Shown here in pieces: positions 2,805-14,441 of a stretch of 64,000 nt of DNA. Numbering within the stretch: position 1 is the first letter of the stretch; each line of letters opens with the position of its first letter. This DNA comes from an uncultured Oscillospiraceae bacterium (lineage in GTDB: Bacteria; Bacillota; Clostridia; Christensenellales; Aristaeellaceae). The position numbers and the translations under genes are program-made. The stretch lies in contig CAZOZO010000001.1 in assembly GCA_964584315.1 (NCBI GenBank), positions 84,225 to 148,224 on the forward strand. Direction: 5' to 3'. Below the pieces are notes generated by a model. The model did not search any database and was not told where the DNA came from. It was given only the letters and a program-made list of their open reading frames with translations.

Positions 2805-4687
2805 TGCAGGGTCACTTCCTGCTCCGCGATCAGCTCGCCGTTCACATACGCGCGGCAGGGGAGAGGGCCGGACAGGCTGGAGCTGACGGGGATGATGATG
2901 GCGTAGGCATCACCCGGGTTGGTCATGCCGCTGTACTGCTCGACTTCTTCGCCGTCTTCCACGAGCGTCACGCGCAGCGGTACGCTCTGGCTGCCCGCAG
3001 GCACGTCCACCGTTATTTCCGCATGGAAAGCCTTGCCCTTGATGCCGATGGTGATCGTGACCTGCGTGTCGAGCACCGCCATGGTGCCCGCCGCGGGGCT
3101 CTGCGCCAGCACCGTGCCGATGGCGTCGTCCGATACGGCCTCGCCATACTCCACCTTGCCCACGGAGAGGTTGCTCTCCTTGAGGAGTTTCAGGGCGTCG
3201 TCATAGGTCTGTTTGGACAGGTCGGGCACGAGGGTGCTGCCGCCCGATACGGTCACTTCGATCTCCTGCCCCAGCACGCAGGGGTTGCCCGCAATCGGGT
3301 TCTGGCCGATCACGGTATCGACGGCCTCTGTGGAGGGACTCTTGAACACCACCATGCTAAGGCCCATCTCCTTGAGCTTGGCGGTCGCGTCCGCACGGCT
3401 CAGGCCCATCAGATCCGGTGTGGTCAGCTGCGTGGGGCCAAGGCTCACGGTCACGACCACGCTGTCTCCCTTGCTCATGTCCGAATCGGCCTCGGGCGTT
3501 TGCGATATCACGGTGCCCGCGGGGGCTTGGTCGTGGTAGACCTCGTTCTGCTGCCAGTTGAGACCCTCGCGCTTGACCAGCGCCTGCGCCTCGGTCACGG
3601 TAAGGCCTACCAGATCGGGCGCGATGGCACTGTCGGTCACATTGCGCACGATGCTGACCACGCCGATCACCAGCGCGAAAAACACCATGACGCCGGTTGC
3701 GACGGTAAGCCCCGCAGAGATGCGCTTGCGACGCTTCAAAAGGGCCCTCATGCGCGCGGTCTGGCTGCCCGCACCCTGACGCTGCGGGGGCATGGCGGGG
3801 CGAGGCTTGACGGGCTGCTGGGGGCCGGGCATGGGTGCGCGCTCCGGCGTGGAGGTAGCGTCCTCCTTGCCCTCCTTGGCTTTCAGCAGCGCATCGGCCA
3901 TTTCGCGGGCGGACTGATAGCGCTTTTTGGGCGATTTTTCCAACGCGCGCATGAGCACCGATATCACGGCGGGCGGCACGCTGGGGTTAAAGTCGGTCAC
4001 GGGCGGCGGCGCGGCGTTGATCTGCTGCATGGCCACCGATACGGGCGTATCGCCCACGAACGGTACACGCCCGGTGAGCATCTCATAGAGCACGATACCG
4101 GTAGAGTAGATATCGCTGGTGGCTTCCACCACACTGCCGGTGGCCTGCTCGGGCGAGGAATAGTGCACCGAGCCTACCACCGTATCGCCCTTGCTGATGG
4201 TAAAAGCGTTGGTCATGCGCGCAATGCCGAAATCCGCCACCTTAATGTGGCCATCCGCATTGACGAGCACGTTCTGCGGTTTGATATCGCGGTGGATGAT
4301 GCCGTTTTCATGCGCGTGTTGCAAGGCGCTCAAAATGCGCACCGTGATCTGAATGGCCGTGTTCGTGTTGAGCTGGCCGCGCTTTTGAATGATCTCCTTC
4401 AGCGTGCTACCGCTGACATACTCCAGCACCAGATAGCGGAACTCGCCCTCCACACCCACATCCAGGAGGTTTACGATATTGTGATGCGACATAAGGCTCG
4501 CCGCCTGCGCCTCGCGCTGGAAGCGTTCGAGAAATTCCTTGTCGCTGTTGTACTCGGATTTCAGGATTTTGATGGCGACGCTGTGGCCCGTACGGATATC
4601 CACCGCGCGGTACACCAGCGACATGCCGCCCTGGCCGATGAAATCCACCAGCTTATAGCGGTCGGCAAACACCATGCCTTTCATCAT
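2801..4687 (-). CDS. prkC: Ser/Thr protein kinase with extracellular PASTA repeats (PrkC/PknB/StkP type)
   Basis: 628 aa: Hanks kinase domain (GQGGMSLVYRA...VAIK, HRDIKPQNVL, DFGIA), Pro-rich linker, one TM segment, then repeated PASTA-like modules. 4-nt overlap with rsgA and with prpC. Confidence 0.9.
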   Translation of the reverse strand: MMKGMVFADRYKLVDFIGQGGMSLVYRAVDIRTGHSVAIKILKSEYNSDKEFLERFQREAQAASLMSHHNIVNLLDVGVEGEFRYLVLEYVSGSTLKEIIQKRGQLNTNTAIQITVRILSALQHAHENGIIHRDIKPQNVLVNADGHIKVADFGIARMTNAFTISKGDTVVGSVHYSSPEQATGSVVEATSDIYSTGIVLYEMLTGRVPFVGDTPVSVAMQQINAAPPPVTDFNPSVPPAVISVLMRALEKSPKKRYQSAREMADALLKAKEGKEDATSTPERAPMPGPQQPVKPRPAMPPQRQGAGSQTARMRALLKRRKRISAGLTVATGVMVFFALVIGVVSIVRNVTDSAIAPDLVGLTVTEAQALVKREGLNWQQNEVYHDQAPAGTVISQTPEADSDMSKGDSVVVTVSLGPTQLTTPDLMGLSRADATAKLKEMGLSMVVFKSPSTEAVDTVIGQNPIAGNPCVLGQEIEVTVSGGSTLVPDLSKQTYDDALKLLKESNLSVGKVEYGEAVSDDAIGTVLAQSPAAGTMAVLDTQVTITIGIKGKAFHAEITVDVPAGSQSVPLRVTLVEDGEEVEQYSGMTNPGDAYAIIIPVSSSLSGPLPCRAYVNGELIAEQEVTLQ

Positions 4688-5394
4688 CCAGCGCTCACCT
4701 CCGTCACGCAGCCCAGCACAAGGCTCACGTTATCGTGGCCGCCGTGCGCCAGCGCCAGCTCCAGAAGCTTGTCTGCCGCGCGCTCGCCCTCCAGCGAGGC
4801 CAGCGTTTCGGCGATCTCTGCGTCCTCCAGCATGTTGTAGAGACCGTCGGAACAGATAAGCCATACGTCGCCAGTTTGCTTTTCCACACGCAAAAGATCG
4901 GGTTCGACAGCGGGGTCGGTACCCAGCGCGCGGGTAATTACACTGCGGTAGGGGTGCGTCTTGGCCATCTCCGGGGTGATCACGCGGTTGCGCACCAGTT
5001 CCGCCACAACGCTGTGATCGTCAGTGCGGCAAGCAAGCGCGCCATCGCGGAAGAGATAGGCGCGACTGTCGCCCACATGGCCGATGAGCATCTCCGTGCG
5101 GCCTTCCCACAGCATGGTGAGCGTGGTGCCCATGCCAGCCAGGGCCAACTCGTGCCGCTGCATGTCGAAAATGCGGCGGTTGGCGGCCTCGATGCTGATG
5201 CGCAGGGAGTTTTCTTCCGGCGTTTTGCCTTGCAGCACATTGCGCACCACCTGCACAGCGATGCGGCTTGCCGTTTCGCCGCCGCGGTGGCCACCCATGC
5301 CGTCGGCCACGCCATACAGGTTATGCGCCACCAGCAGTGAATCCTGATTGGAGGGGCGCACAAGCCCTTTGTGCGTCTTGGCATAAATCAGCAT
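4684..5394 (-). CDS. prpC: PP2C-family Ser/Thr phosphatase (Stp/PrpC)
   Basis: 236 aa, GVADGMGGHRGGETAS...DGLYN; PPM metal-binding motifs. Cognate partner directly upstream of prkC. Confidence 0.88.
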   Translation of the reverse strand: MLIYAKTHKGLVRPSNQDSLLVAHNLYGVADGMGGHRGGETASRIAVQVVRNVLQGKTPEENSLRISIEAANRRIFDMQRHELALAGMGTTLTMLWEGRTEMLIGHVGDSRAYLFRDGALACRTDDHSVVAELVRNRVITPEMAKTHPYRSVITRALGTDPAVEPDLLRVEKQTGDVWLICSDGLYNMLEDAEIAETLASLEGERAADKLLELALAHGGHDNVSLVLGCVTEVSAG

Positions 5395-5436
5395 GGCGAC
5401 CCTCCTTCACGATGGATTTTTGGGCTGGAAAGAACC

Positions 5437-6507
5437 TCAGGTGTTGATGATATCAGCTTTTTGAGCTTCTTTCAAGTGCTGGTTGCGAAGTTGGCCGCAC
5501 GCGCCCGCAATGTCCGCGCCCATTTCGCGGCGCACGGTGGCGGAGACATGCAACGCCTCCAGCGTATCCAGGAAGGTTTGCACCGCGCGCGGCGAGGCGG
5601 GCGCAAGACTGCGCTCGTCCACACGGTTGAGCGGGATCAGGTTGACGTGGCACTGCAGGCCGGAGACGAGGTGCGCCAGTTCCCGCGCATGAGCCGGGGT
5701 ACTGTTGAGCCCGTCGATCAGCGCGTACTCAAACACCACGCGGCGGCCCGTCTGCTTCACATACTCGCGCACGGAGGCCATCAGTTCGCCAATGGGGTAG
5801 CGGCTTGCGATGGGCATGATGCGGCGGCGGATCTCGTCGTTGGGCGCGTGCAGCGAGATGCTCAACGTGATGGGCAGCCCCTCGCCCGCAAGCTGGCGGA
5901 TGCGGGGCACGATGCCGCAAGTGCTGACCGATATGGCGCGCAGGCTGATGTTGAGCCCATCCGCATGGTTGATGAGGCGCAGGAAACGCACGACGTTCTC
6001 ATAGTTGTCCAGCGGCTCGCCGCTGCCCATGAGCACAACGTGGCTTACCTTGCCTGCTACGCCAAGGTAGCGGTTGGCCAGCAGCACCTGCGCGAGCATC
6101 TCGCCCGCGCTCAGGCTGCGAACACAGCCGTTGAGCGTGCTGGCACAGAAGGCGCAGCCCATTTTGCACCCCACCTGGGTGGAGATGCACAGGCTGTAGC
6201 CGTAGTGGTACTGCATCAGCACGCTTTCGACGATGTTGCCGTCCGCGCAGGCATTGAGGAATTTGACGGTCTTGTCCTTTTGCGAGGGGAAGCTCTGGTG
6301 CAGGCGCAGGGGCAGGTCATAGGCCTTGGCTGCAAGCGTCTCGCGCAGGGTTTTGGGCAAGTTGCTCATGTCTATGAAGCTTACGCCGCGGTGCAGCCAC
6401 GTAAAGATCTGCCTGGCACGGAAAGCGGGCTCGCCAAGCTCCGTGAGGAACGCGCCGAGCTCCGCCATGTCCATATCGAGCAGAATGGGTTTGTCCGCCA
6501 TGGTCAT
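5437..6507 (-). CDS. rlmN: 23S rRNA (adenine2503-C2)/tRNA dual-specificity radical-SAM methyltransferase RlmN
   Basis: 356 aa, radical SAM CxxxCxxC (CKMGCAFCAST), C-terminal catalytic Cys region. Conserved position downstream of rsmB. Confidence 0.88.
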   Translation of the reverse strand: MTMADKPILLDMDMAELGAFLTELGEPAFRARQIFTWLHRGVSFIDMSNLPKTLRETLAAKAYDLPLRLHQSFPSQKDKTVKFLNACADGNIVESVLMQYHYGYSLCISTQVGCKMGCAFCASTLNGCVRSLSAGEMLAQVLLANRYLGVAGKVSHVVLMGSGEPLDNYENVVRFLRLINHADGLNISLRAISVSTCGIVPRIRQLAGEGLPITLSISLHAPNDEIRRRIMPIASRYPIGELMASVREYVKQTGRRVVFEYALIDGLNSTPAHARELAHLVSGLQCHVNLIPLNRVDERSLAPASPRAVQTFLDTLEALHVSATVRREMGADIAGACGQLRNQHLKEAQKADIINT

Positions 6508-9158
6508 GCCCTCGCCTTGCGCATGCGCGCGATGAAGAACCCCTCCACCCCGTCGCGGTGCGCGAACAGCTGCAAACCGCTCTCCGTGTACTGACTGCGG
6601 ATGTCCTCGGGGTAGGTGGCGGGCAGCGGCGCGAGGCTGAACTCAGGATGCGCCGCGAGGAATGCCTGCACCTGTTGCGCGTTTTCCTCCGGCAGGATGG
6701 AACAGGTGCTGTACACCAGCGTGCCGCCGGGCTTCACATAGGCGCACAGGGTATTGAGCAGTTTCTTCTGGTTCTCCACGATGGGCTCGATGTCGGTCTC
6801 CTTCAAGCGGTACTTGAGATCCGGCTTCTCAGTGAGCACGCCCAGCCCGGTGCAGGGCGCATCCAGCAGCACACCGTCCATCATGCCGTCAAAATCGGGC
6901 TTGGGCTCGGCCGCGTCGCGGATAGAGATGCGCAGGTTTTCCAGCCGCAGGCGGCGCTGGGCGGATTCCAGCAGCAGTGCGCGCTTCTCGTGCAGCTCCC
7001 AGGCGAATACGCGGCCCGTGTTCTGCATGGTCTCGGCCATATAGCAGGCCTTGCCTCCGGGGGCCGCGCATGCATCCAGCACGCGCATGCCGGGCTTCAC
7101 CTGCATGACCTCGGCGGCCAACATGCTGCTCTGCCCCTGAATGGAGAAGTTACCGTCGCGATAGTCGTTATCCAGCGCGATCTCGCTGGCACCGCCGATC
7201 AGGTAGGCGTGCGGGGCCAGCCCGCGCCGCCACGACCATGCCTTGGTGCTGAGCAGCGCCTCAAAGGCCTCGTCGCTGAACTTCATCATATTGGGGCGCA
7301 GCACCATGTCGTGGCTCTGCCCGCGGTGCATGATGATCTGCTCCGCCAGTTCCTCGCCGTAGGTAGCGGTCAGTTTGTCGACCAGCCAAAGCGGCGCGCT
7401 GCCCATGATGTGCAGATAGTCGCGCAGGCCGTCCTCCCGCTTGGGCCAGGGAATCTCGTCCTTGCCGCGCACAAGGTTGCGCAGCACGGCGTTCAGGAAC
7501 CCTGCTGCACCCTCCATGCCCAGCGCGCGCGCAAGGTTTACACCCTCGTTGACGGCGGCACTGTCCGGCACGCGGTCGTGGAAGAGAATCTGGCAGGCGC
7601 TCAGCCGCAGGATATCGCGTTGCATCGGCTCGCTGGTGGGGTGATCCATCAGGCGATCAAGCGCGAAGTCGATCTGTATCTGCTGCTCAAGCGTGGAATA
7701 GACGATGCTGGTGGTGAGCCTGCGATCCGCGGGGGAGAGATGCGCCTTGGTGAGCCGATCTTGCAAAGCAAGAGAGGCATAGGCACCGCGCTCGTGCACG
7801 TCGCGCAGCACATCCAGCGCCACGCGGCGCGCGCCCGGCGTCAGGCCTGTGCGCTCGACAGGCTCAGCAGTATCCCGGAAGGGCTTGCGCTCACCGGCGC
7901 CAAAACTGGGCGCAGCCTTATAATCCCGGCGCTTGGTCATGCCATAACCGCCAGCGGGCCTGAAGGGGCGGCGCTCGCCATCACCGGCAGGGGTGTAAGG
8001 ACGTTGCACACCATCACCAGCGGGACTGAACGGACGACGTTCGCCGTTACCGGCGGGACTGAAATGACGGCGCTCACCGTCACCAGCGGGCCTGAGGGGG
8101 CGGCGCTCGCCATCACCGGCAGGCCTGAATGGACGGCGCTCACCATTATCGGCGGGATTGAAAGGACGACGCTCGCCATCACCAGCGGGCTTGAAGGGGC
8201 GACGTTCGCCGTTACCGGCGGGATTGAAGGGGCGACGTTCGCCGTTACCGGCGGGATTGAAAGGACGACGCTCACCGTCACCAGCAGGCCTGAATGGACG
8301 ACGTTCGCCGTTACCGGCGGGATTGAAAGGACGGCGCTCACCATCGCCAGCAGGTCTGAAGGGACGGCGCTCGCCATCGCCAGCAGGCTTGAAGGGGCGA
8401 CGTTCGCCGTTACCGGCGGGACTGTAAGGACGACGCTCACCATCGCCAGCGGGCTTGAAGGGGCGACGTTCGCCATCCCCAGCGGGCTTGAAAGGACGGC
8501 GTTCACCATCACCAGCAGGTCTGAAGGGACGGCGTTCGCCATCGCCAGCGGGCTTGTAAGGACGGCGCTCGCCGTTACCGGCAGGATTGAAAGGACGACG
8601 CTCACCATCACCAGCGGGCCTGAACGGACGACGTTCGCCGTTGCCAGCGGGACTGAATGGACGGCGCGCGCCATCGCCAGCGGGCTTGAAGGGGCGACGC
8701 TCACCATCGCCAGCGGGCTTGTAAGGACGGCGCTCGCCATCGCCAGCGGGCTTGAAGGGGCGACGTTCGCCGTTACCGGCGGGACTGTAAGGACGACGCT
8801 CACCATCGCCAGCGGGCTTGTAAGGACGGCGCTCGCCATCGTCAGCAGGTCTGAAGGGACGTCGTTCGCCATCGCCAGCGGGCTTGAAGGGGCGACGTTC
8901 GCCGCTACCAGCGGGACTGTAAGGATGTCGTTCGCCATCGCCAGCGGGCTTGTAAGGACGGCGCTCGCCATCGCCAGCGGGCTTGAAAGGCCGACGTTCA
9001 TCCGCGCCTGCGCCCCCTGCCGGTCTGCCGTAAGGCCGTTCGCCACCGTCGGCTCCGGCGGGCCGATAGGGCCGCTTCTCGCCTGCATTGTAAGGTTTAT
9101 GCCCCTGATAGCCGCCCTTGCCGTCGCGCCCGCCCCTGTGGTTGCCCTGATCGCTCAT
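6504..9158 (-). CDS. rsmB: 16S rRNA (cytosine967-C5)-methyltransferase RsmB/Sun with ~400-aa N-terminal Pro/Gly/Arg/Glu-rich tandem-repeat extension
   Basis: C-terminal ~450 aa carry a NusB-like domain (ARRVALDVLRDVHERGAYASLAL) and a SAM-MTase/NOL1-NOP2-Sun core (LDACAAPGGK, DAPCTG, TLVYSTCS). N-terminal ~400 aa are ~33 copies of PAGDGERRP[FY][KRSN]. ATG at 9158 overlaps the fmt stop as ATGA. An in-frame alternative Met near 7940 would give a canonical-length RsmB. Confidence 0.75.
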   Translation of the reverse strand: MSDQGNHRGGRDGKGGYQGHKPYNAGEKRPYRPAGADGGERPYGRPAGGAGADERRPFKPAGDGERRPYKPAGDGERHPYSPAGSGERRPFKPAGDGERRPFRPADDGERRPYKPAGDGERRPYSPAGNGERRPFKPAGDGERRPYKPAGDGERRPFKPAGDGARRPFSPAGNGERRPFRPAGDGERRPFNPAGNGERRPYKPAGDGERRPFRPAGDGERRPFKPAGDGERRPFKPAGDGERRPYSPAGNGERRPFKPAGDGERRPFRPAGDGERRPFNPAGNGERRPFRPAGDGERRPFNPAGNGERRPFNPAGNGERRPFKPAGDGERRPFNPADNGERRPFRPAGDGERRPLRPAGDGERRHFSPAGNGERRPFSPAGDGVQRPYTPAGDGERRPFRPAGGYGMTKRRDYKAAPSFGAGERKPFRDTAEPVERTGLTPGARRVALDVLRDVHERGAYASLALQDRLTKAHLSPADRRLTTSIVYSTLEQQIQIDFALDRLMDHPTSEPMQRDILRLSACQILFHDRVPDSAAVNEGVNLARALGMEGAAGFLNAVLRNLVRGKDEIPWPKREDGLRDYLHIMGSAPLWLVDKLTATYGEELAEQIIMHRGQSHDMVLRPNMMKFSDEAFEALLSTKAWSWRRGLAPHAYLIGGASEIALDNDYRDGNFSIQGQSSMLAAEVMQVKPGMRVLDACAAPGGKACYMAETMQNTGRVFAWELHEKRALLLESAQRRLRLENLRISIRDAAEPKPDFDGMMDGVLLDAPCTGLGVLTEKPDLKYRLKETDIEPIVENQKKLLNTLCAYVKPGGTLVYSTCSILPEENAQQVQAFLAAHPEFSLAPLPATYPEDIRSQYTESGLQLFAHRDGVEGFFIARMRKARA
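7950..9010 (-). repeat. ~33 tandem copies of a 36-nt unit (in-frame, encoding the 12-aa repeat PAGDGERRPF/Y-K/R/S/N) inside the rsmB 5' region
   Basis: Direct reading shows near-identical consecutive 36-mers (e.g. gggcgacgttcgccgttaccggcgggattgaag repeated back to back at ~8195-8266). Unit length is a multiple of 3, so copy-number change preserves frame. Confidence 0.85.
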
Positions 9159-10093
9159 ATCGTAACCTCATCCAGCGGTTTGCCCGCTTCAATCAAATGG
9201 CCGCGCATGTATGCGCGCGCCTCCAGGCGTTTGGCGTTTGGGGCTTGCACCTGCAAAAGCTCCAGCGCGCCGTCGAGTGTGGATATCACCAGCCCGTGCT
9301 TCTGATCCGCGTGGAGCACGAGGCCGGGCCTGTCCGCTTTGGCGGGGTGTTCCGCCGCCTGCCATACCTTGAGCGCGCCGTTGGCAGCCTGCGCATAGGC
9401 GCAGGGCCATGGATCCATCGCACGCACGCGCAGCAGGCACTGCCGGGTGGTCTCGGCAAAGTGGAGCTCGCCCATTTCCTTGGTCAGCTTGGGGTCGTAG
9501 GTCATGGCGGTCTCGTCCTGCTTTTCGCGGGGGCAATCGCCCGCGGCAAGGCGCCGGATGGTTTCCAGCAACAGGTTTGCCCCCAGATCGGCTAGCCGCG
9601 CGGTGAGGGTGCCCGCCGTATCGGCCTCGGTGATAGGTGTCGAGGCGCGCAGCAACATGTCGCCCGTGTCGATGCCCTTGTCTGTCAGCATGGTGGTAAC
9701 GCCCGTGACTGTATCGCCGGTCAGGATGGCCCACTGGATGGGCGCGGAGCCACGGTGGCGCGGCAGCAGCGAGGCGTGCACGTTCACGGTGCCCATCTTG
9801 GGCACGTCGAGCACTTCCTGGCTCAATATCTGCCCGAAAGCCGCGGTCACGCACAGGTCGGGCGCGAGCGAGATCAAGTCTTCAAGGCCATCCTTGCGGA
9901 TCTTGAGCGGCTGATATACAGGGATGCCTTGCGCAAGCGCAAGCTCTTTGACGGGGCTCATCTGCACCTTGCCGCCACGCCCCTTGGGGCGATCCGGCTG
10001 GGTGAACACGCCTGCGACCTCATACCCGGCCTCGAACAGCGCTCGAAGCGAGGGGACGGCAAAGTCCGGCGTGCCCATGAAAACGATCCTCAA
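9155..10093 (-). CDS. fmt: methionyl-tRNA formyltransferase
   Basis: 312 aa, MRIVFMGTPDFAVPSLRAL...; formyl-transferase N and C domains. 4-nt overlaps with def upstream and rsmB downstream. Confidence 0.9.
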   Translation of the reverse strand: MRIVFMGTPDFAVPSLRALFEAGYEVAGVFTQPDRPKGRGGKVQMSPVKELALAQGIPVYQPLKIRKDGLEDLISLAPDLCVTAAFGQILSQEVLDVPKMGTVNVHASLLPRHRGSAPIQWAILTGDTVTGVTTMLTDKGIDTGDMLLRASTPITEADTAGTLTARLADLGANLLLETIRRLAAGDCPREKQDETAMTYDPKLTKEMGELHFAETTRQCLLRVRAMDPWPCAYAQAANGALKVWQAAEHPAKADRPGLVLHADQKHGLVISTLDGALELLQVQAPNAKRLEARAYMRGHLIEAGKPLDEVTI

Positions 10094-10620
10094 AGGCAGG
10101 CCTCCTCTTCGGGCCTGGCTTCCGGCCCGGCGTCAGGCTCCTCCGCGCCGTCATCCGCCTGTTCATCCTCCTGGAATATCTCGTGCTCCATGATATCCAG
10201 GTACAGCACGCCGTCCAGGTGGTCGATCTCATGGCACAGCGCGCGGGCCAGAAAGCCCTCGCCGACCACTTCGATCGGGTCGCCCTTGGCATTCTGCGCC
10301 TTGACGACCACTACCATTGGGCGCTTGACAACGCCCGCGCGACCGGGCACGCTCAGGCAGCCCTCGGGGCCTTCCTGCTCGCCCTCGGCGCTGACGATGA
10401 CCGGGTTCACCAGCTCGTAAAGCTGGTCGCCCACGTCCACGACGCATACGCGCTTGAGGATGCCCACCTGCGGGGCGGCTAGCCCCGCACCGTCATTTTT
10501 GTACATGGTCTCGGACATGTCCTTGAGCAGCATCTTGAGGCGAAGGTCAAACTTCTCCACCGGTTTGCAATGTTTACGGAGCTTCTCGTCTCCGACTTCG
10601 ACGATCGTACGGGTCGCCAT
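10090..10620 (-). CDS. def: peptide deformylase
   Basis: Motifs GLAAPQVG, EGCLS, HEIDHLDG. Start set at ATG 10620 (RBS AGGAG 8 nt upstream) rather than the in-frame GTG at 10629 used by the ORF track. Confidence 0.88.
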   Translation of the reverse strand: MATRTIVEVGDEKLRKHCKPVEKFDLRLKMLLKDMSETMYKNDGAGLAAPQVGILKRVCVVDVGDQLYELVNPVIVSAEGEQEGPEGCLSVPGRAGVVKRPMVVVVKAQNAKGDPIEVVGEGFLARALCHEIDHLDGVLYLDIMEHEIFQEDEQADDGAEEPDAGPEARPEEEACL

Positions 10621-10646
10621 GTGTTTCACTCCTTGCGTAGGTTCAA

Positions 10647-12887
10647 TTATAACAGGGTGGCGGGGTTTACCTCCGCGTAGATCTGGCAGCCCGGGTCGCT
10701 CACCTGCGCAAGCTCGCCCAGCAGCGCCAAAACGGGTTGCGCGTCGATGTGTTCAAACAACTTGAGCAGTACGTGGTAGCGGTACTTGCCCCGGATGCGG
10801 GCCACGGGGGCCGCGTCGCCGCGCAGCATCAGCACGCGGCGCTTTTGCGCGGGGTGCGCCGCAAGGTAGCTCTCGAGCGTGCCGAGCAGACGGTCGTTCA
10901 TCTCCTGCGCGGCGGGTTCGCTATCGCTTTCCACCAGCAGGCGGGCGATCATCGTAAAGGGGGGGTAGAGCCCCACGCGTCTGCGGTCGAACTCCTGCGT
11001 GAAAAACGAGCGGTAGTCCTGCGCGGCGGCGGCTACGATCACGGGATGCTCCGGCTGATAGGTCTGCACCACGACTTCGCCTGTCTCGCCCGCGCGACCC
11101 GCACGGCCAGCCACCTGCGTGACCAGCTGGAAGGTGCGCTCCTGCGCGCGGTAGTCCGGCAAGTTCAGGGTCGAATCGGCCGCGACCACGCCCACCAGCG
11201 TTACATTGGGGAAATCCAGCCCTTTGGCGATCATCTGCGTACCGATGAGCGCCTGCGCCTTGCCCTCGCGAAAAGCGGTGAGCAGCCGGTAATGCGCGTC
11301 GCGTTTCTGCGTGGTGTCGATATCCATGCGGATGGTCGCCACACCCGGGTACAGGCGGTGGAGCTCCTCCTCTACCTTTTGGGTGCCCGCGCCAAAGTAA
11401 CGGATGTAGCTGCTGCCGCAGGCGGGGCAGGTCTTGGGCGGCGCCTGCGCCGTGCCGCAGAAGTGGCAACGCAGCTCGGCGGTATCCTCCCCGCCCGGCT
11501 GGTGCAGCGTCATGCTCACGTCGCACTTGTCGCACTTGACCACATAGCCGCAGCTGCGGCAGCTTACAAAGGTGTTGTAGCCGCGGCGGTTCAAAAACAG
11601 CATGGCCTGCTGCCCTCGCCCAAAGCAGGCGGCCAGCCGCTGCTGCAAATGCTGGCTGAAGATGGAGCGGTTGCCCGAGGCGAGCTCGCGGCGCATATCC
11701 ACGACGGTCACCTCCGGCAGGGGGCGGCCGTTCACGCGCGTGGGCATCTCCACAAGCGTATAATCACCACGCTTTGCCATAGCGAAACTCAAAATGCTGG
11801 GCGTGGCGCTACTCAGAAGCAGTGTGGCCCCCTCGCGGGCACAGCGGGCCATGGCTACGCGGCGCGCATCGTAGCGGGGGTGGCGGTCGCTCAGGTAGGT
11901 CTGCTCGTGCTCCTCGTCGATCACGATCAAGCCCAGGTTCTCAATCGGCGCAAACACCGCCGAGCGCGCGCCCACCACCACGCGGGCATCGCCCAGGCGG
12001 ATGCGTCGCCACTCATCGCAGCGTTCGCCGTCGGTCAACCGGCTGTGCAGTACGGCGGTGCGGGGGCCGAACCGCTCGCGAAACCACCCGACCATCTGTG
12101 GCGTGAGGGCGATCTCCGGCACGAGGATGATGGCTGCCTTGCCCATTTCCAGCGCGCGTTTGGCCAGTGCGAGGTACACCTCGGTCTTGCCGCTGCCTGT
12201 GACCCCATGCAGGAGAAACGAGCCCTTGCTGGCCTCCAGTGCGGGCAGCATGATTTGGAGGGCGGCGCGCTGTTCGGCGGTAGGTTCCGGCGCAGCGCTT
12301 GTCTCGGCGACCATATCGCCATAGGGCAGGCGAAAGACCACGCGCGTAGTCAGCCGCACAAGGCCAGCCTCCGCAAGCTTCTTGAGCGCGTCCTGCGGCG
12401 CGGCGACCAGCGCCGCAAGCTCGGCCACAGGGTGCGGTTCACCGTCGGCCAGCATCCGCAGCAGTGTGGCGCGCTTGGGCGCGCGTGTCTGCGTGGTAGC
12501 GGCGGCCAGCGCGTCGATGCTTTCGCATAGCTGTGCGACTGGCTCCTGCTTTGCCTGCACACGACCCGTGCGCATGGCGGCGGGCAGCATGAGGCGCAGG
12601 GTTTCGGCCAGCGGGCAGTGGTTCTCGGTGGCCAGCTCCCGCGCCAGCGCCATCAGCGGCGGCAGCACGGCGGCATAGCTGTCCAGCGTGCGGGTGATGG
12701 CTTTCAGGCGCTCGGGCGGCACGTCGCTGGTATCCGTCAGTTCGGCCACAACGCCGTCCACCTGCCGCCGCCCAAGCGGCACACTTACCCGAGTCCCCAC
12801 CGAAACGGCCATGCCGGGCGGTATCAGGTAGGAGAAAGGCTTTGCGACGTTCTCGTGCACCACGTCGACCACGACCTGCGCGATCAA
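10647..12887 (-). CDS. priA: primosomal protein N' (replication restart helicase PriA)
   Basis: 746 aa: N-terminal 3'-DNA-binding domain, DEAD/DEAH helicase core (GVTGSGKTEVY, DEEH), Cys-rich Zn finger (CRSCGYVVKCDKCD...CHFCG), C-terminal domain. Confidence 0.9.
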   Translation of the reverse strand: MIAQVVVDVVHENVAKPFSYLIPPGMAVSVGTRVSVPLGRRQVDGVVAELTDTSDVPPERLKAITRTLDSYAAVLPPLMALARELATENHCPLAETLRLMLPAAMRTGRVQAKQEPVAQLCESIDALAAATTQTRAPKRATLLRMLADGEPHPVAELAALVAAPQDALKKLAEAGLVRLTTRVVFRLPYGDMVAETSAAPEPTAEQRAALQIMLPALEASKGSFLLHGVTGSGKTEVYLALAKRALEMGKAAIILVPEIALTPQMVGWFRERFGPRTAVLHSRLTDGERCDEWRRIRLGDARVVVGARSAVFAPIENLGLIVIDEEHEQTYLSDRHPRYDARRVAMARCAREGATLLLSSATPSILSFAMAKRGDYTLVEMPTRVNGRPLPEVTVVDMRRELASGNRSIFSQHLQQRLAACFGRGQQAMLFLNRRGYNTFVSCRSCGYVVKCDKCDVSMTLHQPGGEDTAELRCHFCGTAQAPPKTCPACGSSYIRYFGAGTQKVEEELHRLYPGVATIRMDIDTTQKRDAHYRLLTAFREGKAQALIGTQMIAKGLDFPNVTLVGVVAADSTLNLPDYRAQERTFQLVTQVAGRAGRAGETGEVVVQTYQPEHPVIVAAAAQDYRSFFTQEFDRRRVGLYPPFTMIARLLVESDSEPAAQEMNDRLLGTLESYLAAHPAQKRRVLMLRGDAAPVARIRGKYRYHVLLKLFEHIDAQPVLALLGELAQVSDPGCQIYAEVNPATLL

Positions 12888-12914
12888 GCACTCCCTCCTT
12901 TACGATGTAGCGGC

Positions 12915-14441
12915 TCAGCGGAAATAGCGGTTGCCCGGCCTGGGTACGCGGCTCTTCTTGCCGCCGCGCCCGCCGCCGCGGTGGAACAGCCGCATCAGCA
13001 GCCGCACCAGCACGTACAGCGCCGCAAGCGGGCCAAGGATCAGGCCCAGCAGCTCCGGCGACAGGGGCGGGAAGGGGTTGGGATCGGCGTAGGTGGCGGC
13101 CTCGATCTCCTCAATGGAGAGCGGGGCATTTTCACGCCGCGCGATGGAGCGGGAGGCCACCAGCTCATAGACGATGGCACTGCCGCCGTCGGACGGGTAG
13201 TACGTCATGGTGCCGAACACCTCGCCCTGCGTGACGGGTGTGGCAAAGTTCTGGCGGGAATATTCGATCAGCACTGCTTGCTTGAGGTTGCGGGCCAGTG
13301 ACTCCACCTCGGTCTTGGTGGCCACGACGCTCACGGTGCGCGTGTCCGGCATGGGCTGGATGTCCAGCTGCAGGCGGCCGATATCCTCGTCGTCCATGGA
13401 GTAGCCGGTGGTCTCGACCACGGTGGGGTTCATCTGGTAAAGGTCTACCGGCGTCACGCTCACAAACTGCGAGAAGCCGTATTCCATCAGCTTTTTGGAG
13501 TCCATCCAGCGGCCGTTGCGCGAGGTGTAGAACACCACCGAGATCAGGCTTACGCCGTCCTTCTCCGCGGCACCCACATAACAGTAGCCCGCGCGGGCAT
13601 GGTAGCCGGTCTTGATACCGGTGGCCATCGGGTAGTAGTAGGTGTTCTCCTCATTGGGGTTCAGCCAGTTGTCGCTGTTGCCCATGATAACGCGCGACCG
13701 CTGCAAATTACTGCGCGGCAGCTTGTAGGAAAAGGTTTTGACGATGTTGCGGAACGTCTCGTTCTGCATGGCGGCGCGGGCGATTTTGGCCATATCGCGC
13801 GCGGTGGTGTAGTGCGTGTCGTCGTGCAGGCCGTTGGCATTGGCGAAGTGCGTGTTGGTGCAGCCGAGGGTTTGGGCGGTCTGGTTCATCAGATCCACAA
13901 ACGCGCCGATGCTGCCGGAGATGGTCTCCGCGATCAGGTTGGCGCCCTCGTTGCCGGAGCGCACCATCGTCGCATACAGAAGATCCTGAAAGTTGATGGT
14001 CTCGCCCACCGAGAGGGGGATGGTGGAGCTGTCGCTGGGGATGTTTGCGGCCACGCTGTCCATGGTGACGGTCGCAGTCATGTCGCCCAGCTGAAGGCCC
14101 AGCATCGTGGTCATGATCTTGGTGGTCGAGGCGGGAAACATCATCTCGTCCGCGTTCTTTTCGAAGATCACCTCACCGGTGGTGGCCTCGATCAAAATGG
14201 CGGACTTGGCGTATAGCTGATCTGCTACAAGCACGTCGGGCTTGGCGGGGTCGTATTCCGGCGCGTCGGAGGGGAGCTGCGGGGCGATGTATTTGATCTC
14301 CGGCTCGGCGTTTACATCCTCGGCGTGCGCGGCGGGCGGCGCGGGGATCAGCGCCAAAAGCACGATGGCGGCGGCGAAAGCGGCCAGCCAGCGCACAGAA
14401 GCCTTCCTCAAACCGCCACCTCCCAGTCGAAGTTGTTTCAC
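12915..14441 (-). CDS. serine-type D-alanyl-D-alanine carboxypeptidase (PBP5/DacB-like) with C-terminal membrane anchor
   Basis: 508 aa, signal peptide, SxxK (ASTTKIMT), SGN (SGNEGA) and KTG motifs; hydrophobic C-terminal tail. Confidence 0.82.
   Translation of the reverse strand: MKQLRLGGGGLRKASVRWLAAFAAAIVLLALIPAPPAAHAEDVNAEPEIKYIAPQLPSDAPEYDPAKPDVLVADQLYAKSAILIEATTGEVIFEKNADEMMFPASTTKIMTTMLGLQLGDMTATVTMDSVAANIPSDSSTIPLSVGETINFQDLLYATMVRSGNEGANLIAETISGSIGAFVDLMNQTAQTLGCTNTHFANANGLHDDTHYTTARDMAKIARAAMQNETFRNIVKTFSYKLPRSNLQRSRVIMGNSDNWLNPNEENTYYYPMATGIKTGYHARAGYCYVGAAEKDGVSLISVVFYTSRNGRWMDSKKLMEYGFSQFVSVTPVDLYQMNPTVVETTGYSMDDEDIGRLQLDIQPMPDTRTVSVVATKTEVESLARNLKQAVLIEYSRQNFATPVTQGEVFGTMTYYPSDGGSAIVYELVASRSIARRENAPLSIEEIEAATYADPNPFPPLSPELLGLILGPLAALYVLVRLLMRLFHRGGGRGGKKSRVPRPGNRYFR

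Follow-up and report, generated by a model that had tools for sequence, protein, structure and literature searches.

Basic disordered tails are an established feature of bacterial RNA helicases and of RNase E. In the case of the helicases RhlE and RhlB, such tails increase RNA binding and unwinding and drive RNA-dependent phase separation, the tail of RhlE1 having a poly-Lys stretch and the basic tail of RhlE2 a poly-Gln stretch (PMC11260450, PMC13462270). Disordered charged domains also occur in snoRNP proteins, among the rRNA-modifying machinery of the nucleolus (PMC11528048), while the N- and C-terminal disordered extensions of IF2 vary in length and have been linked to growth under stress (bioRxiv 10.64898/2026.02.08.704698).

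The tail of the RsmB protein described here resembles the C-terminal tails of P. aeruginosa RhlE1 and RhlE2 and the N-terminal extension of Type II RhlB in being terminal, basic, lineage-specific, predicted to be disordered and attached to an RNA-handling enzyme, with a net positive charge and fast evolution on a conserved core. It differs from them in that the host is an rRNA methyltransferase, in its regular 31-unit array with 14% acidic residues and evenly spaced aromatics, and in being known from sequence alone. We place it with the basic disordered tails of bacterial RNA enzymes, with RNA binding as its putative function. Canonical RsmB is about 430–450 aa long and begins a few residues ahead of the NusB-like domain. 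The core of the present protein matches the canonical bacterial enzyme (Sun/Fmu; E. coli, B. subtilis YloM) end to end, with the NusB-like and methyltransferase domains and both catalytic cysteine motifs, but it is preceded by 442 additional N-terminal residues, built of tandem repeats, which make up about half of the protein.

Charged low-complexity tails are carried in eukaryotes by fibrillarin and by Nop2, the homologue of RsmB. The GAR/RGG and Lys-rich tails of the nucleolus are found on a 2'-O-methyltransferase, a pseudouridine synthase and an m5C methyltransferase of pre-rRNA, and the bacterial carriers discussed below, RlmB, RluB and RsmB, belong to the corresponding classes. The sequence grammar differs, however (a single RGG and a single RG in the RsmB tail), and the likeness is one of analogy, not homology. 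To our knowledge, no nucleolus-like compartment has been found in these bacteria. IF2 likewise combines a conserved translation protein with disordered terminal extensions of variable length, and one IF2 with the same repeat type was found; it represents, however, a different protein family, and its extensions are tied to growth under stress, not to rRNA modification.

The rsmB gene and its repeat array

The window is the whole stretch of 64,000 nucleotides that was analysed. In it, rsmB is part of a gene chain, def-fmt-rsmB-rlmN, joined by 4-nt overlaps, the rsmB stop overlapping the rlmN start at 6504–6507. This order is familiar from Bacillota, and it is identical, as judged by Pfam labels, in the related locus L017. 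The features of the gene are as follows.

9155..10093, minus strand: fmt (methionyl-tRNA formyltransferase), upstream neighbour of rsmB
9165..9169, minus strand: Shine-Dalgarno-like GAGGT, 6 nt upstream of the rsmB ATG, within the 3' end of fmt
9155..9158, minus strand: ATGA overlap of the rsmB start (9158..9156) with the fmt stop TGA (9157..9155)
6504..9158, minus strand: full-length rsmB open reading frame, 884 aa including the N-terminal extension
7833..9158, minus strand: N-terminal extension, aa 1–442, ahead of the NusB-like domain
8982..9062, minus strand: two degenerate leading units (PAGADGGERPYGR / PAGGAGADERRPFK), aa 33–59
7959..8981, minus strand: core array of 31 tandem units of 33 nt / 11 aa, consensus PAGDGERRPFK, aa 60–400
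7926..7958, minus strand: final partial unit PAGGYGMTKRR, holding the internal in-frame ATG
7938..7940, minus strand: internal in-frame ATG, Met407, the start used in public gene calls, which gives the 478-aa product P0176
7467..7832, minus strand: NusB-like RNA-binding domain, aa 443–564 (PF01029, E 7e-27; pLDDT about 85–94)
6522..7109, minus strand: RsmB/F SAM-dependent m5C methyltransferase domain, aa 684–879 (PF01189, Methyltr_RsmB-F, E 1.5e-54), with the cysteine motifs DAPCTG and YSTCS

Residues 443–882 are assigned to RsmB by the NCBIfam equivalog NF011494 (PRK14902; 418.8 bits against a cutoff of 319) and by TIGR00563 (342.8 bits against 269), both of which span this interval from about position 1 to 444 of the model. 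The translation contains both catalytic cysteine motifs and the SAM loop (LLDAPCTGLG, VYSTCSILPEEN and DACAAPGGK). Throughout a 30-sequence alignment, C769, C819 and the loop A698-A699-P700-G701-G702-K703 are invariant; within the wider SAM-loop stretch D695–K703, A696 is only nearly so. The AlphaFold model is confident over residues 441–884, with a pLDDT of about 85–94 in the core. The core of the gene product is RsmB, the 16S rRNA m5C967 methyltransferase, with activity on C967 as its predicted function.

That RsmB has a long N-terminal extension built of repeats had been proposed in the sequence-only reading of this DNA, and about 442 residues indeed precede the NusB-like domain. The description of the repeats has to be revised. 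Their unit measures 33 nt or 11 aa rather than 36 nt or 12 aa: in the motif PAGDGERRP[F/Y]x, 31 copies of PA[G/D] follow one another exactly 11 residues apart, a repeat search returns a spacing of 33 nt throughout the array, and the periods given by TRF are 66, 99 and 165 (matches of 78–81%). The count of ~33 becomes 31 full units, with two degenerate ones upstream and a partial one downstream. Neither are the units near-perfect copies, since their mean pairwise identity at the DNA level is 76% and 27 of the 31 are distinct. The whole tandem array, which spans about 7949..8999 and is the only one in the window, shows higher-order periodicity at 165 nt and 363 nt, and its longest exact repeat is 72 nt. 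An assembly artefact was rejected as its origin in view of the heterogeneous units and the shortness of that exact repeat, and because long arrays also occur in relatives, on a 2.6-Mb contig and on a complete chromosome. Scans of residues 1–442 against Pfam and NCBIfam gave no family match, and an Rfam scan of positions 5000–13500 returned nothing at E values up to 0.1.

Translation of the extension

The GAGGT element, the 6-nt spacer and the ATGA overlap are kept in all 12 related loci examined. Met407, which lies 36 codons ahead of the NusB-like domain, is preceded by no Shine-Dalgarno-like motif. Within the array, the units differ from one another mainly at the third codon position of the rsmB frame (column entropy of 0.20, 0.43 and 1.04 at the three positions), and 65% of the codon differences are synonymous. 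Codon-position periodicity alone cannot tell the sense frame from one antisense frame; the latter, which has a similar wobble signal and an even higher synonymous fraction (74%), was rejected because stops interrupt it in 8 of 30 units. The rsmB frame is the only one that is both stop-free and rich in synonymous differences. Openness by itself proves nothing, since the array is also open in two further frames, as a 383-aa ORF (7937..9088, minus strand) and as a 915-aa antisense ORF. Comparison with a fragment from a related strain, L016, which aligns without gaps at 88% nucleotide identity, gave a dN/dS of 0.11 when the repeat part is read in the rsmB frame, the other two frames giving 4.4 and 1.85; the corresponding value for the RsmB core is 0.04. 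In three relatives (L003, L005 and L006), the extensions of 268–301 codons contain no in-frame ATG, GTG or TTG.

Because the rsmB frame is under purifying selection, the Shine-Dalgarno element and the ATGA overlap are conserved, extensions are present in all relatives and some of these offer no alternative start, the extension belongs to rsmB and, judging from these genomic signals, its translation almost certainly starts at the ATG overlapping the fmt stop codon. The sequence-only reading had noted this overlap, had argued from it that the extension is translated and had pointed to an internal Met near 7940 (the in-frame ATG at 7940..7938), all of which is supported here.

Alternatively, the array might be an untranslated tandem repeat between fmt and rsmB, with Met407 as the true start and an open frame that results by accident from a stop-free unit in GC-rich DNA. 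This would agree with the public calls for this gene (P0176 and three further members of its cluster), which start at Met407, and with the two other open frames. It would also agree with the low GC3 of the extension (0.56, as compared with 0.85 in the core and 0.80–0.83 in neighbouring genes), where T-ending codons are unusually common and codon usage is atypical for the genome; the drop in GC3 is seen in 11 of 12 loci, overall GC being unchanged. However, the synonymous excess and the low dN/dS are confined to the rsmB frame, the initiation signals are conserved at the upstream start and lacking before Met407, three relatives have no other start to use, and the peptide motif and composition are kept even though DNA and period diverge. 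Moreover, a promoter and terminator scan found no minus-strand site within the array that could support a separate transcript with an internal start, and no Rfam family was matched there. An untranslated array is thus very improbable. Both starts might instead be in use, so that the coupled ATG would yield a long RsmB and Met407 a short canonical one, their ratio tuning the share of tailed enzyme. The position of the in-frame ATG so close to the NusB-like domain, and a similar internal Met (MTQRRDY) at the equivalent place in L019, are in favour of such a pair. Met407 nevertheless has no Shine-Dalgarno-like motif, and most relatives lack a Met at this place, some of them lacking any start codon; an internal start is therefore not a conserved feature, and we regard the existence of two isoforms as unlikely.

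As for existing annotation, a collection of about 15 billion proteins does not contain the 884-aa product, and one gene caller chose the wrong frame for the array on a fragment.

Composition, predicted disorder and turnover of the tail

The extension (aa 1–442) is made up of G 19%, R 18%, P 16%, A 10%, E 8%, D 7% and F+Y 9%, with only 1.4% ILVMW; Pro and Gly together account for 35%. Its net charge is +35 and its pI 10.9, against a pI of 5.9 for the acidic core. Basic residues make up 22% and acidic residues 14%; at a net charge per residue of just +0.08, the tail is no simple polycation. AlphaFold2 assigns residues 1–431 a pLDDT of 33–50 and no secondary structure, although low pLDDT is no proof of disorder. 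The extension is most likely an intrinsically disordered, net-basic polyampholyte according to this model, and the earlier description of a Pro/Gly-rich, charged segment of low complexity agrees with both composition and prediction. An RGG/GAR domain was considered and rejected, since the 442 residues contain one RGG, one RG and two GR and no cluster of such repeats, Arg being present as E-R-R-P. A collagen-like G-X-Y repeat was rejected as well: in PAGDGERRPFK, Gly occupies positions 3 and 5 of the 11 and does not recur at every third residue.

The relatives compared were 12 complete loci from Candidatus Limiplasma and related Clostridia MAGs. All 12 have an N-terminal RsmB extension, of 71–507 aa, and each of the 120 RsmB homologues listed is at least 488 aa long. 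Long arrays are found, among others, in the 2.6-Mb contig (L009, in CAXXGW01, with an RsmB of 949 aa) and in the complete chromosome (L011); OY776489.1 and OW818697.1 are accessions of complete relatives. The 10 longest extensions (264–507 aa) have repeat periods of 11, 14, 22, 23, 28–30 or 46 aa and share a conserved composition (R+K 15–24%, P 10–19%, G 10–22%, F+Y 6–9%, no more than 3% aliphatic residues, and a net charge of +23 to +54). The two shortest, in L010 (167 aa) and L012 (71 aa), are basic and essentially non-repetitive; they begin with MNRDGK and MTEKRP, respectively, and the N-termini of most others are alike, with MSDQGN or MSEHGN. While the RsmB cores are 66–84% identical, period and length of the tail differ in every species. 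Selection acts on composition and on a short motif, not on the length or number of units, which turn over quickly between species.

Two other views of the array bear on this pattern. The repeats could fold regularly, as a solenoid, a polyproline-II helix or a collagen-like rod, as might be suggested by a period of strictly 11 residues in which each unit has two Pro and two or three Gly. Against this are the AlphaFold2 result for residues 1–431, the absence of G-X-Y periodicity, the near absence of aliphatic residues and the shift of the period from 11 to 46 residues at constant composition, which is ill-suited to a fixed fold; a regular structure thus appears extremely unlikely. The array could also be a contingency or copy-number locus, whose point would be rapid length variation through slippage or unequal recombination. 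It is tandem, with higher-order periodicity and exact repeats of up to 72 nt; unit length and number vary between species; and two loci of one relative, with flanks about 99% identical, differ by 198 nt, that is, by three 22-aa double units, in frame, a difference that may be an assembly error. It was the one such length difference seen in a relative. On the other hand, a unit of 33 nt means that gain or loss is always in frame, so that the array is no on/off switch, and units only about 76% identical disfavour replication slippage; a phase-variable contingency locus was rejected on these grounds and for want of exact repeats longer than 72 nt. The window and L016, moreover, align without gaps over 16 units, and differences between assemblies may be artefacts, given that short-read contigs break inside the array. 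A DNA-pattern scan of metagenomes yielded only two contigs, both broken within the array, and hence no copy-number comparison for this species. A role as copy-number locus is highly improbable, and slipped-strand variation, which the sequence-only reading had expected, becomes a weaker expectation at this level of unit identity.

Similar repeats on other proteins and the proposed role of the tail

Searching with the tail alone gave 116 proteins, including, by precomputed Pfam classes, 28 RluB-type pseudouridine synthases, 18 RlmB-type 2'-O-methyltransferases, 42 L7Ae-family proteins, 5 DEAD-box helicases, 2 RsmB, 1 RRM protein and 2 23S-IVS proteins. So obtained, the link to RNA enzymes is based on low-complexity matches, and the 42 L7Ae matches are near-duplicates. 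The 22 matches examined in full have terminal repeats of the [D/E]G[E/D]R[R/K]P[F/Y] type, with the exception of P0176, which is the cut-short call of this same rsmB gene. Two of the DEAD-box helicases (P0123 and P0125) have near-identical GDGERRPFKPAGEGE repeats. Among the best 150 matches in a library made non-redundant at 50% identity, 19 contain the motif four or more times, including 6 RluB-type proteins, 1 RlmB, 1 IF2 and 1 DbpA-domain protein; the other 131 match by composition only, for which reason this list is not usable as a whole. The feature was not found described in a literature search on RsmB extensions, RluB tails and motif strings. In the searchable literature, no report was found of a bacterial rRNA methyltransferase with a long tandem-repeat tail, or of a [D/E]GER[R/K]P[F/Y] grammar shared by RsmB, RlmB, RluB, DEAD-box and L7Ae-family proteins.

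We consider it probable that the array encodes a disordered, net-basic tail that serves RsmB as a multivalent RNA tether. Translation would begin at the fmt-overlapping ATG, coupled to that of fmt. Each unit of 11 residues has an acidic patch (D-G-E), an Arg-Arg pair and a single aromatic residue between Pro and Lys/Arg (RRP[F/Y][K/R]), Pro/Gly spacers separating these motifs. Directly adjoining the NusB-like RNA-binding domain, the tail could then act as a long tether with little sequence specificity, which would catch 16S rRNA in its nascent or naked form and concentrate the enzyme locally on 30S particles under assembly. A further effect may be RNA-dependent self-association. The recurrence of the repeats on other RNA-handling enzymes fits a disordered RNA-binding tail. 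Of the sequence-only proposal of an RNA-binding or phase-separating tail, the disorder is thus backed by prediction, while RNA binding, tethering and condensation keep the standing of suggestions.

A tail that is translated and disordered might have a main role other than RNA capture, for example as a protein–protein scaffold, an entropic or solubility bristle, an autoinhibitory partner of the acidic core or a localisation signal. Its polyampholyte character and the opposite pI values of core and tail are compatible with such roles, and some carriers of similar repeats are not RNA enzymes (a dihydropteroate synthase, a flavin reductase, a UvrD-type helicase and one family with no Pfam match). 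Most carriers with a recognisable domain, however, are rRNA-modifying enzymes, RNA helicases or ribosome-related proteins, and in the RlmB-type proteins P0122, P0127 and P0130, as in RsmB, the tail is N-terminal and adjoins a Pfam-annotated RNA- or substrate-binding domain. Furthermore, regularly spaced Arg-Arg pairs and aromatic residues are a typical pattern of contact with nucleic acids. A different main role is fairly unlikely, and the RNA tether is the reading that we retain. As a bolder and distinctly unlikely extension of it, the [D/E]G[E/D]R[R/K]P[F/Y] repeat may be a recurrently recruited module of ribosome biogenesis, in which the tails of RsmB, RlmB, RluB, DEAD-box, L7Ae-like and IF2 proteins would gather rRNA-modifying and remodelling enzymes, by weak multivalent contacts among the tails and to nascent rRNA, into a nucleolus-like assembly zone on transcribing rrn operons. 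If true, bacteria would thereby have a counterpart to the GAR- and Lys-rich tails that nucleolar enzymes carry.

At this locus, 46% of the RsmB protein is missing from public gene calls, and other members of the clade likely suffer from the same annotation error. The clade presents one functional composition in six or more repeat periods and is thereby a clear natural example of a disordered region that is selected for its composition and its pattern of short motifs, not for a precise sequence. Should the tail direct enzymes to nascent rRNA, it would provide a handle on the question whether ribosome biogenesis in bacteria is organised by multivalent disordered tails, as it is in eukaryotic nucleoli.

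The rsmB gene and the reading frame of its repeat array

The window RsmB is encoded by a single ORF, whose 442-aa N-terminal tail precedes a complete methyltransferase core:

10647..12887, priA, directly upstream of def-fmt-rsmB-rlmN
6504..9158 (-), rsmB, single ORF, 884 aa
9158..9156 (-), rsmB start ATG, overlapping the fmt stop codon (ATGA; from sequence)
7959..8981 (-), 31 full repeat units, consensus PAGDGERRPFK (repeat analysis)
7938..7940 (-), internal ATG (Met407), inside the partial downstream unit (from sequence)
aa 443-564 (-), NusB-like domain (Pfam)
aa 684-879 (-), RsmB/F methyltransferase domain (Pfam)

Residues 443-882 match the 16S rRNA m5C967 methyltransferase from end to end, the NCBIfam equivalog PRK14902 scores 418.8 bits (cutoff 319), and the catalytic motifs (Pro-Cys and Thr-Cys) are present, as is the SAM loop, all of them invariant in 30 homologues. 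The start codon is preceded by GAGGT and a 6-nt spacer. Successive genes overlap by 4 nt at all junctions of def-fmt-rsmB-rlmN (10090..10093, 9155..9158 and 6504..6507, (-)), which suggests that they are translationally coupled; since the def/fmt overlap reads TTGA, fmt apparently starts with TTG.

A sequence-only reading of the window had described about 33 near-perfect tandem repeats of 36 nt (12 aa) in the rsmB frame. The array is indeed present, but its unit is 33 nt (11 aa): PA[G/D] occurs 31 times, exactly 11 residues apart, a repeat search finds the 33-nt spacing throughout, and the TRF periods are multiples of 33. The 31 full units are flanked by two degenerate units upstream and a partial one downstream. 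Near-perfect identity does not hold, with 27 of the 31 units distinct, a mean pairwise DNA identity of 76% and a longest exact repeat of 72 nt (8386..8457 and 8749..8820, 363 nt or 11 units apart). Together with a best-scoring TRF period of 165 nt (five units), the 72-nt duplication points to higher-order segmental duplications inside the array. No second tandem array occurs anywhere in the 64-kb window.

The open frame alone is no evidence of coding, because the array is also open in two other frames. These decoy ORFs, one of 383 aa in the +1 sense frame (7937..9088 (-)), ending at the TGA within the internal ATGA, and one of 915 aa antisense to rsmB (6558..9305 (+)), exist because the repeat unit is stop-free. 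At the sequence level, however, four independent lines (variation between units, comparison with a related strain, the conserved start and the conserved extension) identify the rsmB frame as coding, and the earlier proposal of translation from the ATG overlapping the fmt stop is almost certainly right. Column entropy between units is 0.20, 0.43 and 1.04 at codon positions 1, 2 and 3, and 65% of the between-unit codon differences are synonymous in the rsmB frame, as against 3% in the other open frames. An antisense frame sharing the wobble positions reaches 74%, but is ruled out by stops in 8 of 30 units. The repeat part is under purifying selection: between the window and a related-strain fragment, L016 (88% nucleotide identity, ungapped, 16 units in the same frame), read in the rsmB frame it has a dN/dS of 0.11, as compared with 4.4 and 1.85 when the other two frames are used and 0.04 for the core. 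GAGGT, 6 nt and ATGA are kept in all 12 complete related loci, most of which have similar N-termini (MSDQGN... or MSEHGN...), and no Shine-Dalgarno-like motif was found before the window's internal ATG. An N-terminal extension, 71-507 aa long, is likewise present in all 12 loci; these derive from Candidatus Limiplasma and related uncultured Clostridia and include a 2.6-Mb contig (949-aa RsmB) and one complete chromosome. In three of the relatives (L003, L005 and L006), the 268-301-codon extensions contain no in-frame ATG, GTG or TTG, so that RsmB without the tail cannot be made there. Within the array, no promoter-like or terminator-like sites were found on the minus strand, and Rfam gave no match.

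Several points stand against this reading. Public calls of the window rsmB (the 478-aa protein P0176 and three other cluster members) start at Met407, and the 884-aa product is not among the approximately 15 billion proteins of the searched collection. The tail's GC3 is 0.56 (7833..9158 (-)), below the 0.85 of the core (6507..7832 (-)) and the 0.80-0.83 of def, fmt, priA and rlmN, G-ending codons being depleted and T-ending ones (CGT, GGT, CCT, GCT, GAT) enriched. Extension GC3 is likewise below core GC3 in 11 of 12 loci (set L001-L013), with overall GC roughly equal; this may offset the very high GC imposed on the first two codon positions, or may result from repeat turnover. In the ENA record of L016 (2..541), the gene caller chose the +1-frame decoy over the rsmB frame.

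Variation and composition of the tail

When rsmB length and repeat number are compared among relatives, as the sequence-only reading had suggested, the extension is found throughout, while its length and repeat period vary. The period in the long extensions (264-507 aa) is 11, 14, 22, 23, 28-30 or 46 residues, whereas composition is steady (R+K 15-24%, P 10-19%, G 10-22%, F+Y 6-9%, net charge +23 to +54), which argues that selection maintains composition and a short motif while the repeats turn over fast. A folded repeat is hard to square with this pattern. The shortest extensions, of 167 aa (L010) and 71 aa (L012), are basic and essentially without repeats. Each of the 120 database homologues of RsmB listed is at least 488 aa long.

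In a relative, two loci with approximately 99% identical flanks, L001 (~2873..5368) and L017 (3001..5298), encode RsmB proteins of 831 and 765 aa and differ by an in-frame 198 nt, exactly three 22-aa double units. Either the strains truly differ or the assemblies do, the latter being possible because short-read contigs break inside such arrays. Two JGI metagenome contigs from a related species, L018 (1..171 (-)) and L019 (1..181 (+)), are broken inside the array; the protein on the former has the N-terminus MSDQGNHRGGR, identical to that of the window RsmB, and on the latter an internal Met (MTQRRDY) corresponds in position to Met407.

The window tail contains G (19%), R (18%), P (16%), A (10%), E (8%), D (7%) and F+Y (9%), with 1.4% aliphatic residues; its net charge is +35 and its pI 10.9, as against 5.9 for the core. 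Each unit combines D-G-E, which is acidic, with an R-R pair and a single aromatic between Pro and Lys/Arg. An RGG/GAR box was rejected, as there is only one RGG, and so was a collagen-like repeat. The tail is predicted to be disordered: AlphaFold2 (30-sequence alignment) gives residues 1-431 a pLDDT of 33-50 and no secondary structure, and the catalytic core about 85-94.

Similar repeats in other proteins

A search with the tail alone matched 116 proteins, which were sorted by precomputed Pfam.

Proteins matched by the tail-only search (of 116)
RluB-type pseudouridine synthases (S4 + PseudoU_synth_2): 28
RlmB-type 2'-O-methyltransferases: 18
L7Ae/L30e-family proteins, largely Butyricicoccus near-duplicates: 42
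DEAD-box helicases: 5
RsmB: 2
RRM protein: 1
23S-IVS proteins: 2
Non-RNA enzymes: a few
Proteins without Pfam domain: 13

The 22 matches read whole have repeats of the [D/E]G[E/D]R[R/K]P[F/Y] type at one end, for example RlmB with about 17 copies of PRPSGDGERRPYS and DeaD with GEGERRPFKPAGEGE; the one exception, P0176, is the truncated call of the window rsmB itself. A non-redundant library at 50% identity (1.84 billion proteins), searched exhaustively, gave 277 matches at E <=1e-3. Among the best 150, similarity was mostly compositional only, and the motif occurred at least four times in 19: six RluB-type proteins, one RlmB, one IF2, one DbpA-domain protein, one UvrD-type helicase, one TPR protein and about eight without Pfam domain. 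Going by low-complexity similarity, the repeat type is thus strongly, although not exclusively, associated with rRNA-acting enzymes.

Four of the proteins (P0121, P0131, P0134 and P0136) share a conserved N-terminal domain without Pfam match and have a long C-terminal GDGERRPFTPR / GGDRKPFAPR array very like the RsmB tail. P0266, P0220 and P0230 have the motif and no Pfam domain, and P0232, annotated in Terriglobus albidus (Acidobacteriota) as hypothetical, may be grouped with these carriers. In a 2.37-Mb genome (OW818697.1; L015 3001..4776), an RlmB homologue bears an N-terminal array of about 250 aa with some 17 near-identical 13-aa PRPSGDGERRPYS units, within a Bacillota-type gene context (cysS / mini-RNase III / rlmB / sigma factor). 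Judged by its sequence, this is a second rRNA methyltransferase family carrying this kind of tail.

Possible role of the tail

The substrate of E. coli RsmB is naked or early-assembly 16S rRNA. In the window protein, the tail, a translated net-basic polyampholyte predicted to be disordered, lies immediately before the NusB-like RNA-binding domain; for this tail we infer RNA binding, tethering and condensation. The 31 evenly spaced RRP[F/Y][K/R] patches would probably make weak multivalent RNA contacts, while the Pro/Gly spacers would keep the tail extended and the D-G-E patches would curb indiscriminate sticking. The tail could thereby widen the capture radius of RsmB and retain the enzyme on nascent rRNA; RNA-dependent self-association is also possible.

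Experimental precedent comes from bacterial helicases: with the disordered tails of RhlE1/RhlE2 and Type II RhlB, RNA binding and unwinding increase, and these tails also cause RNA-dependent phase separation (PMC11260450, PMC13462270). IF2 extensions offer a further parallel (bioRxiv 10.64898/2026.02.08.704698), and the Lys-rich tails of eukaryotic snoRNP proteins a functional analogy (PMC11528048). In our literature search we found neither a repeat extension on RsmB nor this motif described. Basic disordered tails are already known from bacterial RNA enzymes, and the RsmB tail is of this kind; what is new is that its host is an rRNA methyltransferase, that the tandem array is unusually long and regular, and that the motif occurs in several rRNA-modifying families. 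On a more ambitious and less probable reading, the repeat might serve bacterial ribosome biogenesis as a common module for targeting or co-assembly.
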